A stretch of 64,000 nt of DNA, from positions 159,339 to 223,338 of the forward strand of contig JADHVF010000001.1 in NCBI GenBank assembly GCA_016784145.1, given 5' to 3'. Within the stretch, counting starts at the first letter, position 1, and each line of letters begins with the position of its first letter. Made by a program: the position numbers and the translations under genes. Below are positions 4,620 through 24,177 of this stretch, one piece after another. This DNA is from Patescibacteria group bacterium. Lineage in GTDB: Bacteria; Patescibacteriota; Patescibacteriia; UBA2591; UBA6264. Under the pieces are notes generated by a model that was not told where the DNA came from, did not search any database, and was given only the letters and a program-made list of their open reading frames with translations.

Positions 4620-4817
4620 ATGGAAGGAACCATTAAAAAGTTAACTGACAAAAACTTCGGTTTTATTACTCAAGAAGATAGCGACAAAGATTTATTCTTT
4701 CACGCTAGCGAACTAGACGGAGTTGAGTTCAGTGACTTAAGAGAAGGTGACGCAGTAACTTTTGAAGTAAAAGATACTCCAAAAGGACCAGCTGCAAATC
4801 AAGTAAAAAAAGCTTAA
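4620..4817 (+). CDS. cspA: cold-shock protein (CspA family)
   Basis: RNP1-like KGFGFI and RNP2-like FFH motifs. Length 65 aa. Confidence 0.9.
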   Translation: MEGTIKKLTDKNFGFITQEDSDKDLFFHASELDGVEFSDLREGDAVTFEVKDTPKGPAANQVKKA

Positions 4818-8307: not shown

Positions 8308-9579
8308 TCAATAATAATCTTTGATTTTTTTGGTATCACCAAGCTCTCTAATTCTTTCCAATGCTCGAGCTTCAATTTGTCTGATTCTCTCTCTAGTAAC
8401 ACCAAATACCTGTCCAACTTCTTCTAATGTATGAGCTACTCCGTCTGAAAGTCCAAATCTAATATCCAGTATTTTCTGCTCTCTTGATGAGAGGTCTGAG
8501 GTCACTTCTTTCATATATTTTTTCAAAAGAGCAAGCGCAGCCACTTTGTCAGGTGTTATTGTTTTTATGTCTTCAATAAAATCAGCTAGTTCTGTATTTT
8601 TGTCATCATCTTTTCCAACCGTTGTTTCTAATGAAATAACATCTTGTGATATTTTAATTAAATACCTGGCTTCATCTGCGCCTATTTCTAATTCGTCAGC
8701 TATTTCTTCTGGGGATGGTCGCCTGCCTAATGCTTGCGCCAAATATCTGTCTGCTTTTTTAAATTTTCCTAAAACTTCAACCACATGGACAGGAATTCTG
8801 ATTGTTCTTGATTGATCTGCTAATGAACGGATAATTGCCTGTCTTATCCACCAAACAGCATAAGTTGAAAATCTATAGCCTCTTTTCCAATCAAATTTTT
8901 CTACAGCTCTGAAAAGTCCGATGTTTCCTTCTTGAATTAAGTCCAAAAAAGTTAACCCATAACCAGAAAATTTTTTAGCAACACTGACAACTAAACGCAA
9001 ATTTGATTCTATTAACTTCATTTTGGCAAACTCATCTCCATCGTCTTTGAGTTTGGCTAGTTCTACTTCTTCTTTGGGGGTTATTAAAGATACTCTGCCA
9101 ATTTCCTTTAAATACATCTGAATCGAATCAGCTGACAACTTGCTTAAATCTAACATGAATTTATTGTCTTTTTTTTCTTCTTGATCCAATAGATTTTCTT
9201 TTGATTCAGCTATATTTATACCAGCTTTTTCTAATTTATCAAGAAAATCCTCGTATTCATCTAAATACTTTTCTAATCTAACAAAAACATGAAGTAACTC
9301 ATTTTCCGTCACAAATCCCCTTTTTCTCCCTTTGTTGGCTAATCTGTCCGCCTCTTGTTCTGGAAATTTAATTGAATAGATTGGATCTGTCTTAACCAGT
9401 TTGACAACTTTTTTCTTAAGAGATTTTTTCTTTTTCACCACTGTCTTTGGTTTAATCACTTTCTTTTTCACTTTTTTCTTAAGAATCTTTTTCTTTTTCA
9501 CAGCTGTCTTTGATTTAATCGCTTTCTTTTTTAGAAATGCCTTTGTTTTTAAAATTTTCTTTTTTTTCTTAATTGACAT
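8308..9579 (-). CDS. rpoD: RNA polymerase sigma factor RpoD (sigma-70) with lysine-rich N-terminal repeat extension
   Basis: Regions 2-4 are conserved ([26 protein letters not shown]...RERIRQIE). TGA stop. The first ~60 residues consist of KKK-x repeats. Confidence 0.93.
9414..9535. repeat. imperfect tandem duplication of about 60 bp encoding the Lys-rich N-terminus of RpoD
   Basis: Two near-identical units read directly (ttcttaaga...tttcaccactgtctttggtttaatcactttctttttcac). Confidence 0.6.
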
Positions 9580-13439: not shown

Positions 13440-13530
13440 TTCTGCCTCCTTTTTTTAAATTATTTCTTACTGTGACAAGGATAGCGCAAATCTCCCTTTC
13501 TGTCAATTCCCTATATCTACTATTTAACCT

Positions 13531-13552
13531 ACTGAGAGGCCTTGCCTCTCAG
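13531..13552. repeat. GC-rich palindromic element, variant ctgagaggc-ctt-gcctctcag
   Basis: 21-nt hairpin. Member of the family also seen at 15176..15215, 23282..23341 and 23540..23560. Confidence 0.5.
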
Positions 13553-13582
13553 TAAATTTTGGATAAATTTTATTTAGGGAAT

Positions 13583-15060: not shown

Positions 15061-15175
15061 TTATCTTGTTTTGCTATATTTACTATTTATATGCTTGTCT
15101 ATACATGGATCAGGCACAATGGTCAGTCCTATTTAAGTGAGCTCTGATAACCCTATTAACTTAGTGGAAACCCCT

Positions 15176-15215
15176 ACTTAGAGGCCTTGCCCTACTTAGG
15201 GGCCTTGCCCCTAAG
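15176..15215. repeat. tandem pair of GC-rich palindromic elements (cttagaggccttgccctac / cttaggggc-ctt-gcccctaag)
   Basis: Read directly. The loop ctt is the reverse complement of the aag loop in the 23.3-kb copies, so the element occurs in both orientations. Confidence 0.55.
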
Positions 15216-15480
15216 TAAAATAAAAAATTGTGTAATATTTATATTAAGAATAACCAAAAAAAATAATTTTAACAACCATTTTTTTATTTTCCAAAATCCA
15301 ATTTTTTAGTAAAAATTACAAATATTGTAACAAATTATATTTTTACTCGTCATATTATAATGAGAGGGATAAAAAAAATAATAAATATTAAAAATGACTG
15401 TAATAAAAATAACTAATAAAAAAAGCAAGAAAAAAGTAGATTCCGCCTTAGAAAAATGGGCTATATTTTTATTATTTTTA

Positions 15481-15530
15481 ATGCAAAAAGAAAATAAAAA
15501 ATAAAATAAATATAATAAACAAACAAAAAA
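15481..15530. repeat. direct repeat DR-L (atgcaaaaagaaaataaaaaataaaataaatataataaacaaacaaaaaa), followed by hairpin terminator 15531..15560
   Basis: 49/49 identity with DR-R at 16966..17014. Confidence 0.7.
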
Positions 15531-15863: not shown

Positions 15864-16961
15864 ATGATAAAAAAGCAAAAAAATACCACTAAAAAGGGTC
15901 TGGGTCTGGATAAATTCGATAAACGGCTTGAACACGTCCCAGCCAGCATCATCTCGAAAATAGGACAGATCGATGAATTAAAAGGAAGATGGATTGCAGG
16001 GGCAAAATTAAGTCCTCAAGTTTTAGGTCGTCTCAAACGGTCTGTTTTGATTACATCTACTGGTGCTTCTACTCGTATTGAAGGTGCAAAACTATCTGAT
16101 AAGGATGTTGAGAAAATGATGAGAGGTATTACTATCCAGAAATTTACTGACCGAGATAAACAGGAAGTTCAAGGTTATTATGAACTTTTAGAAAATGTTT
16201 TTAATTCTTGGAAAATACTTAAACTTAACGAAGGCACTATAAAGCATTTCCACGGTGAATTGCTCAAGTATGTTGATAAAGACCAAAGACATCGAGGTGA
16301 TTATAAAAAGCAGGAAAATAAAGTCCACATGGTAAATAAAGCTGGCGAGTCTGTGGGTGTTCTTTTTGATACCACCGCCGCCTATCTTACTCCCAAAGAA
16401 ATGCAGGAATTAATTGAGTGGACTAACAATGCTTTGACCGAGAAAAAATATCACTCACTTCTTATTGTCGCTAATCTCTTAGTAGAGTTTTTAAAGATTC
16501 ATCCATTCCAAGATGGTAATGGCCGGTTTTCTCGTGTTCTGACAAATCTATTGCTTCTTAAAGAGGGCTACGAATACATGCCCTATGTATCTCATGAGAA
16601 ATTGGTTGAGGATAACAAGCCAGAATACTATATTGCTTTACGTAAAAGTCAAAAAACAATGGGTTCAAAAAAAGAGGATATTACTCCATGGCTTAAATTC
16701 TTTTTCACTATGTTAATTCAACAAGCAGAAATGGCAGAAGAGCTTTTGTCAAAAGAAAACATAGAAAAACTTTTGTCTGAAAAACAGCTGGCTGTTTGGC
16801 AGTATTTACAGGAAGTAGAAGAAGTCAGCACTGGAAAGCTTGTTAAAAAAACAAAAATTTCTCGAGCTACTGTAAAACAAGCACTCGATAGATTATTACA
16901 GTTTAAGAAAATCGAACGCATTGGTCTTGGTAGAAGCGCGAGATACCGAAAACTAAAATAA
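15864..16961 (+). CDS. fic: Fic-family protein (AMPylator) with C-terminal winged-helix domain
   Basis: Canonical Fic motif HPFQDGNGRFSR. Confidence 0.9.
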   Translation: MIKKQKNTTKKGLGLDKFDKRLEHVPASIISKIGQIDELKGRWIAGAKLSPQVLGRLKRSVLITSTGASTRIEGAKLSDKDVEKMMRGITIQKFTDRDKQEVQGYYELLENVFNSWKILKLNEGTIKHFHGELLKYVDKDQRHRGDYKKQENKVHMVNKAGESVGVLFDTTAAYLTPKEMQELIEWTNNALTEKKYHSLLIVANLLVEFLKIHPFQDGNGRFSRVLTNLLLLKEGYEYMPYVSHEKLVEDNKPEYYIALRKSQKTMGSKKEDITPWLKFFFTMLIQQAEMAEELLSKENIEKLLSEKQLAVWQYLQEVEEVSTGKLVKKTKISRATVKQALDRLLQFKKIERIGLGRSARYRKLK

Positions 16962-16965
16962 ATAT

Positions 16966-17014
16966 ATGCAAAAAGAAAATAAAAAATAAAATAAATATAA
17001 TAAACAAACAAAAA
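16966..17014. repeat. direct repeat DR-R, followed by hairpin terminator gacggaag-taat-cttccgtc plus T6 (17015..17045)
   Basis: Identical to DR-L. Both are followed by a hairpin and then tttttaatat. Confidence 0.7.
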
Positions 17015-17057
17015 AGACGGAAGTAATCTTCCGTCTTTTTTAATATACAATAAATAC

Positions 17058-21574: not shown

Positions 21575-23218
21575 TTAAACAATAATAACAAGTGGTTTTT
21601 TGCCTGTTTTGTTTAATATAAAATCACTTAAACTTAAAGCTATTTTTTCTTTTGACTTTTTGTCTGTGCCATGTTTCTTTGTGAGCGCATTAGCTTTTTG
21701 TTTTGTTTCCATTATTATTTGCTTGTCTGCCGACAAACCAAGAAAGTTAACCTTAACATTACGCGAATTTTTCTTTTTTCCATAAGAGATTGAAACAATA
21801 CAAATGCCTGCCTCTGCCATGATTTTGCGTTGCTTTATTATTTCAGGACTTATAATCTTAATGTTTTTCCCTTCCACAACCGGAGATGTTAACGAAATTT
21901 CCTTGCTTAATATTCTGGCATTTTTAATTTCATCTATTTCAAAAATACTGCCATTTTTAAGCATAAAACAATTTGATTCCCTGATATTGTTTTGTTTAGC
22001 TAATTTAATATGAGTTGACCTCATATATGGTTCTCCGTGAACTGGAATAAAAAAATTTGGCCTAATAATTTTCAACATTTTTGATAAATCCTTACCAAAA
22101 GCATGTCCTGAACTATGAACACCTAATCCTAACATTCTTCTATAGATTATTTCTGCTCCCTGAGAAACTAATCCGTTGATAACCCTGTGAACAGATAATT
22201 CATTGCCTGGAATGGTTGAAGATGAGAAAACAACTGTATCTCCTTTTTTTATTCGCACTAACCTGTGTTCTCCTCTGGCAATATTTGACATGGCTGACCT
22301 TTCTTCGCCTTGCGCTCCCGTAGCTAGAATTAGCAAGTTTTTATCAGGAATACTTTTAATATCCTTAACTTCTTTTATTAGTCCATTGGGAATCTTTAAA
22401 AACCCTAATCTTTCCGCAATGACAATACTTTTTTTAATTGAAAATCCAACTACAACTATTTTTCTATTGTATTTTTTACAGGATTCAATTACCTGAGAAA
22501 TGCGACTTATCAAAGTTGAAAAAGTTGTAAAAATTATCCTTGATTTTGACTGTTGAACAATTGAATCAATTACTCTGCCAACTTCTTTTTCAGGAGTGGT
22601 TGTGCCATCTATATTTGCATTAGTACTATCTGCCATATATAAATCAACTCCCTGCCTACTAATTTGCTTTAATCTTTTCATATTCATTGGTGTTTGATCA
22701 GCTGGGTTTTTATCTAGCTTAAAATCACCTGTATGAAAAATACTAATAAATTTTGTTTTTATAATCAAGGCAAAACTATCTGGAATATTATGGACAACAT
22801 GAAATGGTGTAATTTCAAAAGACCCCAATGAGAATGATTGGTCATCAAGAATCTCAACCAAATTAACATTATCTATTTTAAATTCTTTTAAATAAAATCT
22901 TATGAAGCCAATCGCTAATTTGCTAGCATATATTTTTGGATTGCCTATTTCTTTTATTAAGTGATGAATTGCCCCAATGTGATCCAAGTGGCCATGGGTT
23001 ATTACCAACCCCTTAATTCGTTTTTTGTTTTTTCTTAAATAACTTATATCTGGCAGAATATAATCCACCCCTGGCATATCAGGGCCTGGAAAATCCAATC
23101 CCATGTCAACTACAACAATATCTCCAGGGACATTGTTTTCTTTTATCTGCTCAAAAACAGTACAATTCTTGCCAACTTCTTCCAATCCTCCGATTGGAAT
23201 TATTCTTAATTTTTCCAT
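21575..23218 (-). CDS. rnj: ribonuclease J
   Basis: Metallo-beta-lactamase HxHxDH (VITHGHLDHIGA), beta-CASP and C-terminal domain. Length 547 aa. Confidence 0.9.
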   Translation of the reverse strand: MEKLRIIPIGGLEEVGKNCTVFEQIKENNVPGDIVVVDMGLDFPGPDMPGVDYILPDISYLRKNKKRIKGLVITHGHLDHIGAIHHLIKEIGNPKIYASKLAIGFIRFYLKEFKIDNVNLVEILDDQSFSLGSFEITPFHVVHNIPDSFALIIKTKFISIFHTGDFKLDKNPADQTPMNMKRLKQISRQGVDLYMADSTNANIDGTTTPEKEVGRVIDSIVQQSKSRIIFTTFSTLISRISQVIESCKKYNRKIVVVGFSIKKSIVIAERLGFLKIPNGLIKEVKDIKSIPDKNLLILATGAQGEERSAMSNIARGEHRLVRIKKGDTVVFSSSTIPGNELSVHRVINGLVSQGAEIIYRRMLGLGVHSSGHAFGKDLSKMLKIIRPNFFIPVHGEPYMRSTHIKLAKQNNIRESNCFMLKNGSIFEIDEIKNARILSKEISLTSPVVEGKNIKIISPEIIKQRKIMAEAGICIVSISYGKKKNSRNVKVNFLGLSADKQIIMETKQKANALTKKHGTDKKSKEKIALSLSDFILNKTGKKPLVIIV

Positions 23219-23281
23219 AACATATCCTCATTTTTATTTTATTTACTCTGTTTACTCTATTGTTTGCTCTATTTTATTTTA

Positions 23282-23341
23282 CTTAGGGGCAAGGCCCCTA
23301 AGTGATTGATTTGTACTCTACTTAGGGGCAAGGCCGCTAAG
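23282..23341. repeat. two GC-rich palindromic elements (cttaggggc-aag-gcccctaag and cttaggggcaaggccgctaag)
   Basis: Read directly. Left boundary of the minisatellite. Confidence 0.6.
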
Positions 23342-23349
23342 TGAGATTC

Positions 23350-23531
23350 TTGATTACTAATTATTGATTATTGATTACTAATTATTGATTACTGATTATT
23401 GATTACTGATTATTGATTATTGATTCTTGATTATTGATTACTAATTATTGATTATTGATTATTGATTATTGATTACTAATTATTGATTATTGATTACTGA
23501 TTATTGATTATTGATTACTGATTATTGATTA
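23350..23531. repeat. heptanucleotide minisatellite, 26 contiguous units of TTGATTA / CTAATTA / CTGATTA (one TTGATTC)
   Basis: Parsed unit by unit: T A T T A T C T C T T' T T A T T T T A T T C T T C T. Noncoding, with TAA in every variant A unit. Lies between rnj and ORF 23612..23890. Confidence 0.8.
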
Positions 23532-23539
23532 CTACTCTA

Positions 23540-23560
23540 CTTAGGGGCAAGGCCCCTAAG
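23540..23560. repeat. GC-rich palindromic element cttaggggc-aag-gcccctaag (right boundary of minisatellite)
   Basis: Identical to the copy at 23282..23302. Confidence 0.6.
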
Positions 23561-23611
23561 TGAGGTAAAAGCCACTAAGGGATGTAATTCAGGAGAATTT
23601 TAAGAGTAGGA

Positions 23612-23890
23612 CTAGGATTTTTTGAAAGAGATGGTGGATTTTTTTAAAGCAATTTTATAAATATTCTCTATAAAATCTCCACCAGCATAACCAACTATTA
23701 AAGAAACCATGGCGGTTGATTTGAATATATAAGCTGCAAACATCCCAATAAATCCAGACAAAAATGTCATTGTTAAAAAATAAAATAAATCAAACTTTAC
23801 ATTTTTATATGAAAATTGGTGTTTTATAAAACCAACTAATCCCCTGATTACTCCTCCGCAAAAGCCTGCGATTAAAATTTGCCATTCCAT
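23612..23890 (-). CDS. small membrane protein
   Basis: Hydrophobic ORF. Confidence 0.35.
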   Translation of the reverse strand: MEWQILIAGFCGGVIRGLVGFIKHQFSYKNVKFDLFYFLTMTFLSGFIGMFAAYIFKSTAMVSLIVGYAGGDFIENIYKIALKKSTISFKKS

Positions 23891-23901
23891 AATTTTTATT
23901 T

Positions 23902-24177
23902 TTAATATTTAATACTAAAATTTTTAAAATTAACTAATTCATTCTCCCAATCAACTTCAAAATTATCTATTTTAGCAGCCCCCAGCCCTTGATTAATTAA
24001 TTGAATCAATTGCTTGATATTTTGTTCTGGTCCTTGTACTTTTACTTTAACCGACCCATCTAACTCATTTTTTACCCAACCAACCAGCCCCAGCTTTAAA
24101 GCTAATTTTTGAATATTTAAGCGAAGAAAAACTCCTTGCACAATTCCTCTAAATATAATCACTGATTGTTTGTTCAT
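23902..24177 (-). CDS. acyP: acylphosphatase
   Basis: V-x-G-x-VQGV-x-FR signature (IIFRGIVQGVFLR). Start placed at the internal MNKQ. Confidence 0.7.
   Translation of the reverse strand: MNKQSVIIFRGIVQGVFLRLNIQKLALKLGLVGWVKNELDGSVKVKVQGPEQNIKQLIQLINQGLGAAKIDNFEVDWENELVNFKNFSIKY

Follow-up and report, generated by a model that had tools for sequence, protein, structure and literature searches.

A heptamer array with extragenic hairpins, probably a lineage-specific repeat insertion, upstream of the RNase J gene of a Patescibacteria bacterium

The 64-kb stretch of DNA analyzed here (the window) comes from an uncultured bacterium of the Patescibacteria (candidate phyla radiation, CPR). In it, the gene for RNase J (rnj) is separated from a small gene, open reading frame (ORF) 92, by a spacer of 393 nt (positions 23219-23611) that carries an array of heptamers and three hairpins rich in guanine and cytosine (GC). 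The array and the hairpins are probably a lineage-specific, non-coding repeat insertion in the ORF92-rnj junction, which was expanded by slippage and has no dedicated function. The block has a modular anatomy, represents a derived state of the junction and shares its hairpins with a dispersed family; it has no coding potential, no curvature and no excess of promoters. There is no evidence that the array switches RNase J.

Results

Anatomy of the ORF92-rnj spacer

The non-coding heptamer array occupies 182 bp of the minus strand (23350-23531) and consists of 26 strict 7-bp units in one register, in the same unit order that an earlier, sequence-only reading of the window had parsed. On the plus strand there are 17 TTGATTA, 4 CTAATTA, 4 CTGATTA and 1 TTGATTC units; the minus-strand counts are TAATCAA 17, TAATCAG 4, TAATTAG 4 and GAATCAA 1. 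With a partial unit at 23345-23349 (minus-strand GAATC), the array is 0.7 unit longer. The array is impure: nine of the 26 are variant units, and no pure run exceeds 4 units. Tandem Repeats Finder reported periods of 14, 21 and 35 with scores of 261-294, which makes the array the strongest in the 64-kb window by this program (the runner-up scores 206). Self-identity within the array is 0.89-0.92 at lags 14, 21 and 35, compared with 0.85 at lag 7. With one letter per unit variant, the minus-strand order TCT TCT TAT ... TC TC TAT TAT is one of neighbouring duplicated blocks. The block pattern and the lag identities together bear the mark of stepwise slippage or of unequal exchange of multi-unit blocks. 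Neither the rest of the 64-kb window nor 10.5 kb of DNA beside it holds a second TTGATTA-type array.

All six frames of the array are closed; the longest open stretch has 13 codons, and no ORF of at least 20 aa lies within it. The sequence-only reading had excluded coding on the ground that every variant A unit contains TAA; the exclusion itself holds, but the closure does not come from the variant A units alone.

A 21-nt palindrome, CTTAGGGGC-AAG-GCCCCTAAG, is present exactly at 23282-23302 and 23540-23560, and a further copy at 23321-23341 has one G->C mismatch that breaks one stem pair. None is expected by chance (100 shuffles). GC-rich palindromes thus frame the array as had been described, two on its left and one on its right, with the mismatch in the 23321 copy as a refinement. 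On the minus strand, which is the mRNA-sense strand of both genes, the spacer opens with 51 nt after the ORF92 stop codon (23561-23611), which contain a CTTAGTGG half-site. Hairpin H1 (CTTAGGGGC-CTT-GCCCCTAAG, 23540-23560) starts after these 51 nt and is followed by a module spacer head, TAGAGTAG (23532-23539), whose counterpart TAGAGTAC comes after hairpin H2. Next come the 26 heptamers and, by sequence reading, a truncated unit GAATC plus TCA (23342-23349). H2, the mismatched copy (23321-23341), leads into an unexpanded 18-nt spacer, TAGAGTAC-AAATCAA-TCA (23303-23320), the one-unit counterpart of the expanded H1-H2 spacer. H3 (23282-23302) lies 63 nt upstream of the rnj ATG, and these 63 nt form an AT-rich leader (23219-23281) with a 12-nt tandem repeat, TAGAGCAAACAA / TAGAGTAAACAG (23249-23273), and the GAGGA ribosome-binding site of rnj.

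This order has a regular grammar. TCA stands directly before each of the three hairpins, H1 and H2 are each trailed by TAGAGTA(G/C) and (T/A)AATCAA, and the distance from the start of H2 to the start of H3 is 39 nt. By these shared borders and this spacing, the cluster is three tandem copies of a 39-nt module composed of TCA, hairpin, TAGAGTA(G/C) and (T/A)AATCAA. The array is the terminal heptamer of the module 1 spacer, amplified in situ.

The junction in related lineages

In four related lineages rnj has a homologue of ORF92 (62-72% identity) immediately upstream. The gap between the two genes is -4 nt on contig L138, 6 nt on L019 and L020, 39 nt on L139 and 124 nt on L021, compared with 393 nt here, and the array was absent from the relatives examined. 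Because the gaps of the relatives are confined to this range, the 393-nt spacer is a derived insertion, and a conserved rnj promoter or leader it is not. The ancestral state is a tight junction of co-oriented genes, and ORF92 and rnj are probably co-transcribed. The sequence-only reading had placed the array in the promoter-proximal region of rnj on the minus strand. The position upstream of rnj is right, but the wording misleads, as the region is the ORF92-rnj junction and a derived insertion within it. The comparison with relatives, proposed there as a check, did not reveal conservation.

ORF92 is better conserved across the relatives (62-72% identity) than RNase J (52-57%). Its homologues were located at L019 2719-2994, L021 2601-2876, L138 1223-1504 and L139 1195-1461, and they share the invariant motif GG(V/A)(I/L)RGLVGFIKHQFSYK…GYAGGDFIEN. 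ORF92 and RNase J may be functional partners. We also noticed that the ORF91-rnj junction of L021 (2877-3000) has unrelated short repeats of its own, namely six CGAAT copies spaced 7-11 nt apart and an imperfect ~20-nt direct repeat (ATTTGTAGATTAGCAT…). The ORF92-rnj junction may be a recurrent sink for repeats.

A dispersed family of hairpins

The hairpins of the spacer have counterparts elsewhere in the genome. The family, denoted by the pattern ACTNNNNGGCCTTGCCNNNNAGT, was surveyed over ~75 kb, that is, the 64-kb window plus 0.5 kb to its left and 10 kb to its right. It comprises six copies at three intergenic loci in the 64 kb, with stems of 10-11 bp and a loop of 3 nt; the flanking 0.5 kb and 10 kb hold no further copies. 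One dispersed copy (15172-15215, plus strand) lies between bacA and a gene with a Fic domain, in a divergent intergenic region of 803 nt. Its exact palindrome is at 15195-15215, and a truncated, partial duplicate stands right before it at 15172. H3 and its flank TAAAATAAAA match this locus (15194-15225) at 32 of 32 positions, and the CTTAGTGG half-site is common to the sequence upstream of H1 and that just upstream of the 15172-15215 copy. A variant member, TACTGAGAGGCCTTGCCTCTCAGTA (13530-13554, plus strand), starts 28 nt past the stop of a DNA-alkylation-repair gene. Its loop and stem ends are unchanged, and its 11-bp stem stays perfect through two compensatory changes (U-A to G-C and G-C to A-U). 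All copies are intergenic, in either orientation relative to the adjacent genes, and two of them lie 28 and 51 nt past a stop codon.

The hairpins are thus a small family of dispersed extragenic palindromes that is similar in behaviour to repetitive extragenic palindromes (REPs). REPs and their composites, the bacterial interspersed mosaic elements (BIMEs), are short GC-rich extragenic palindromes of Enterobacteria and Pseudomonas that stabilize upstream mRNA. As in REPs, the palindromes described here are short (within 20-40 nt), GC-rich, extragenic and present in several copies (six, at three loci), and they are dispersed, locally clustered and found between genes of one operon. They differ in that REPs have a conserved GTAG/GTGG head at the 5' end of the palindrome, whereas here GTAG stands 3' of the stem (…CCCCTAAGTAGAGTAG) and only at H1 and H2; it is absent at H3 and at the 15195 and 13530 copies. 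Unlike those of BIMEs, the clustered copies are in direct and not alternating orientation, and there is no sequence similarity to REPs. A Pfam scan took in 29 ORFs, about half of all in the window, and among these no REP-associated tyrosine transposase (RAYT, a Y1 transposase) was found.

The hairpin 21-mer had no match in viral contigs. In GTDB representatives and JGI metagenomes, collections from which the present species is absent, it was found only in DNA of 49-60% GC of Oscillospiraceae type and of Chloroflexota, with unrelated flanks. Rfam names none of these outside hairpins except one within a glmS ribozyme match (L018, a Chloroflexota glmS region). We treat the outside matches as coincidental and not as relatives of the present element. 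Among them, the identical 21-mer CTTAGGGGCCTTGCCCCTAAG on contigs L011-L017 and L024-L033 belongs to a multi-copy element with conserved flanks (…ccaaaaaacagaCTTAGG…CTAAGaaccccgct…). Its hosts are GC-rich Pseudoflavonifractor and Oscillospiraceae genomes and metagenome contigs, and L027 holds two of the copies, 1272 nt apart. The element is covered by no Rfam family.

Predicted RNA structure

In the sense RNA, stabilities of -16.8, -9.7 and -16.8 kcal/mol were predicted for H1, H2 and H3, and the array is largely unpaired between the hairpins (z = -4.0 for the region). The plus-strand RNA of the array folds into a long hairpin of ~90 pairs (-125 kcal/mol, z = -10), because UGAUUA is self-complementary when G·U pairs are allowed. 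This (UUGAUUA)n hairpin is probably incidental and was given no weight, the strand being antisense to the operon. Rho-independent termination was considered for H1 to H3 and rejected: on the sense strand, what comes after the stems is TAGAGTAG, TAGAGTAC or TAAAATAA, none of which is a U-tract, unlike the canonical terminators of the window, of which there are at least six with A and T tracts. Because of the missing U-tract, the hairpins are a class apart from terminators. Only H3 scored as terminator-like, and this on the plus strand. Rfam gave nothing at gathering score in the region and only chance-level matches at E<=1.

Assembly and stability of the locus

The longest exact repeat inside the locus is 35 nt, so that an assembly with k>=41 crosses it uniquely and one with k=31 cannot. 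Contigs with an exact copy of the RNase J, ORF92 or 119-aa protein were collected, and two assemblies besides the window span the region. In both of these SPAdes assemblies (ERZ24794645 and ERZ24794644) all 393 nt of the spacer are identical to the window, and the unit count is 26 in three of three. The k=31 Logan contigs of six runs all end in the hairpins. The identical array in three assemblies means that there is no gross instability; the samples are near-clonal, with retrieved contigs of this species 99.94-100% identical to the window. Another assembly-breaking repeat lies ~525 nt outside the left edge of the window (L034 1-600). There, a segment of ~70 nt (AATTCTATTAAAAAGTATCTTTGTTAAACTCG…GGTTAC) is duplicated, a 27-nt segment (CCTCTAAAGTACAAATCCTGTGCTTTT) also occurs twice, and two independent contigs end.

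Neighbouring genes and other repeats

The window has a GC content of 30%. An exact match to its RNase J is annotated as 'Patescibacteria group bacterium' on a 237-kb NCBI contig, and the next closest homologue shares just 57% identity. The rnj gene (21575-23218, minus strand) encodes the Pfam domains metallo-beta-lactamase (MBL), beta-CASP, RMMBL and RNase_J_C. ORF92 (23612-23890, minus strand) encodes a small predicted membrane protein of 92 aa that has no Pfam match. The genes neighbouring the array are ORF92, RNase J, an acylphosphatase and an MBL hydrolase.

Two further repeats were observed in the window. A perfect 50-nt direct repeat (15481-15530 and 16966-17015) brackets a gene of 365 aa (15864-16961) with a Fic/DOC domain and a DIP2311-like C-terminal domain. 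This arrangement, which looks like a cassette insertion or duplication, shares its long intergenic region with the hairpin copy at 15172-15215. A 63-nt tandem duplication (two copies, 90% identical, 9407-9531) lies inside an ORF of 423 aa (8308-9579, minus strand) whose Pfam match is a sigma-70 factor.

Discussion

The explanation that we prefer starts with a palindrome cluster that would have entered the junction of ORF92 and rnj in no lineage but this one. Replication slippage or unequal exchange would then have amplified the terminal heptamer of module 1 to ~26.7 units. Point variants would have arisen within the array in the order TAATCAA, TAATCAG, TAATTAG and would then have been copied as blocks of 2-5 units. 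The block would be transcribed as part of the ORF92-rnj mRNA, because its hairpins lack U-tracts and the real terminators of the genome have them. Any effects on the RNA would be by-products, with the stable hairpins as barriers to exonucleases and the array as an unstructured, AU-rich tract of 182 nt. The array itself would be near-neutral.

Such a history agrees with what is known of intergenic heptameric simple sequence repeats (SSRs). An excess of heptameric SSRs has been reported for the intergenic DNA of bacteria, with slippage of DNA polymerase as the proposed cause (PMC4692102). In Nostoc PCC 7120, pecE and pecF are separated by a perfect GGGGATT array of 26 units (PMC4692102). Heptamer families include the cyanobacterial short tandemly repeated repetitive sequences (STRR), GGGGA(T/C)T of Nostoc PCC 7120 and GGGAATC of Xanthomonas, and TAACTGA arrays occur in Beggiatoaceae, Cyanobacteria and Bacteroidetes (PMC4692102, PMC4679880). 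In Bacteroidetes and Cyanobacteria the TAACTGA arrays reach up to 43 copies where the spacers of the closest relatives are short and repeat-free (PMC4679880). The present array resembles these SSRs in its head-to-tail 7-nt units, tens of which lie in non-coding DNA between co-oriented genes, in a spacer longer than in close, repeat-free relatives, and in its presumed slippage origin. It differs in its unit, TAATCAA, its CPR host and its embedding in a palindromic-repeat cluster; moreover, the known families occupy many loci per genome, whereas only one array was found here in ~75 kb.

Several points weigh against this explanation. In genomes that are 99.94-100% identical neither conservation nor variability can be measured, and neutrality cannot be demonstrated. 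The identity of the array in three assemblies could also mean that it is maintained. The hairpin family is described from ~75 kb, and co-transcription of ORF92 and rnj is deduced from the gene order of relatives. Furthermore, the separate repeats of L021 at the same junction may mean that the site is repeatedly used for something.

Among the alternatives, a role of the block as an intercistronic mRNA element is unlikely, although several observations suit it. The hairpins would protect the 3' end of ORF92 and the 5' end of rnj, and (UAAUCAA)n would be the platform at which an endoribonuclease, possibly RNase J, enters or cleaves, so as to uncouple or autoregulate rnj expression. In E. coli, REP hairpins set differential expression inside operons. 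The block lies exactly between co-oriented genes that are contiguous in relatives, its three stable sense hairpins surround an unpaired AU-rich tract, read-through is plausible for hairpins without U-tracts, and the compensatory stem variant argues that hairpin structure matters. However, the element is not conserved, the relatives cope with gaps of -4 to 124 nt, and the family's hairpins occur in either orientation and at one divergent intergenic site, which fits a selfish or neutral repeat better. A more elaborate form, in which the block is a length-tunable regulator of RNase J dosage, is highly improbable; here a hairpin-bracketed platform for RNase J or Y would provide self-feedback, with the number of units resetting the set-point. 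We regard it as very unlikely that the array is a contingency locus in which gain or loss of 7-bp units alters rnj transcription. The model for this is hmw1A/hmw2A of Haemophilus influenzae, in which (ATCTTTC)n lies between the promoters P2 and P1 (PMC8262952). Unit size and copy number are alike (7 nt, ~13-28 repeats in hmwA, of which tracts of 13-24 repeats have been studied), as is the position upstream of a gene (PMC8262952). The hmwA tract, however, is pure, lies between mapped promoters and varies among isolates, whereas the present one is interrupted, which lowers slippage rates, and has neither a mapped promoter nor variation seen. In addition, the array stands 131 nt from the rnj ATG behind two hairpins, promoter-like matches in 22900-24000 (5) do not exceed those expected from shuffles (6.6 +/- 2.5), and the 393-nt sequence is the same in all three assemblies. 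The contingency locus raised by the sequence-only reading thus found no support.

That the heptads are binding sites read by a protein is very improbable as well. The candidates would be an omega/ParB protein with a ribbon-helix-helix (RHH) fold or an RNA-binding protein such as S1, Csp or CsrA; RNA binding of the S1, Csp or CsrA type has been proposed for TAACTGA repeats, and a gene for a cold-shock domain is present in the window (4620-4817). The RHH protein omega of pSM19035, a ParB, binds 7-10 contiguous WATCACW repeats that serve as operator and centromere (PMC9499535). The present array shares contiguous 7-bp repeats without gaps and, in the register AATCAAT, matches WATCACW at 6 of 7 positions (PMC9499535), but position 6 is A or G where the consensus has C. 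The omega heptads number 7-10, are of mixed orientation and lie over the plasmid's own par and copy-control promoters, whereas there are 26 direct heptads here at a chromosomal operon junction. No RHH or ParA gene was found near the array or among the ORFs scanned, which included ten of 65-132 aa and the genes near the array and the hairpin copies. The array is a single locus in ~75 kb and is absent from relatives. Nor is the motif special: (TAATCAA)4 occurs in 27 stretches of IMG/VR viral contigs, compared with 39, 19 and 15 for three composition-matched heptamers. These viral arrays have 4-18 units and unrelated flanks and come from unrelated viruses, and TAATCAA appears to be an ordinary slippage product. 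The idea of a special motif was therefore dropped, and the regulator-binding array suggested earlier is not borne out. One uncultivated viral genome (IMGVR_UViG_3300001533_002010) carries three (TAATCAA)4 arrays, at L043 9375-9409, L048 855-889 (minus strand) and L062 2120-2154; its retrieved stretches have 55-59% GC, and an ATG lies within ~7-18 nt after each array. These recall MacGregor's start-codon-proximal TAACTGA repeats (PMC4679880). Quite unlikely, too, is a non-autonomous mobile element resembling a miniature inverted-repeat transposable element (MITE) or a palindrome-associated transposable element (PATE), with the palindromes as its ends and the array as its cargo. The insertion is specific to the lineage, the palindromes are dispersed in the genome, and identical end palindromes can pair as terminal inverted repeats. 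Yet the ends pair in this way only as self-palindromes, no target-site duplication is seen at the flanks, and the hairpin is absent from viral contigs. The scanned ORFs include no transposase or RAYT-like gene. The copies at other loci are the hairpin alone, and the array unit and its flanks derive from the spacer of the 39-nt module itself. Of the mobile-element interior envisaged by the sequence-only reading, the dispersed repeat family of palindromes stands, while the array is better described as an expansion of a spacer in situ. Finally, intrinsically curved or otherwise structural DNA, or an assembly artefact, is extremely unlikely, even though the repeat is regular and AT-rich and k=31 assemblies break there. 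A-tracts (AnTm >=4) are limited to four AATT, and the Fourier amplitude of AA/TT at 10.5 bp is 0.022 in the array, below the window background of 0.115 +/- 0.060; local bends would cancel because three 7-bp units equal two helical turns. Curved or A-tract-like DNA was rejected on these grounds. An artefact does not agree with three assemblies that are identical base for base and a longest internal repeat that k>=41 resolves.

In practice the locus breaks assemblies, as seen for the k=31 contigs, and the array could be used to mark strains. RNase J has a central part in RNA decay, and to our knowledge regulation in the reduced genomes of CPR bacteria is almost unexplored. The importance of the locus would be larger if heterogeneity in unit number or a setting of the RNase J level were shown. 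As it stands, the finding is of little importance beyond adding an example from the CPR/Patescibacteria to the known intergenic heptameric SSRs and extragenic palindromic repeats, and a single locus at which an array appears to have grown from the spacer of a palindrome module.

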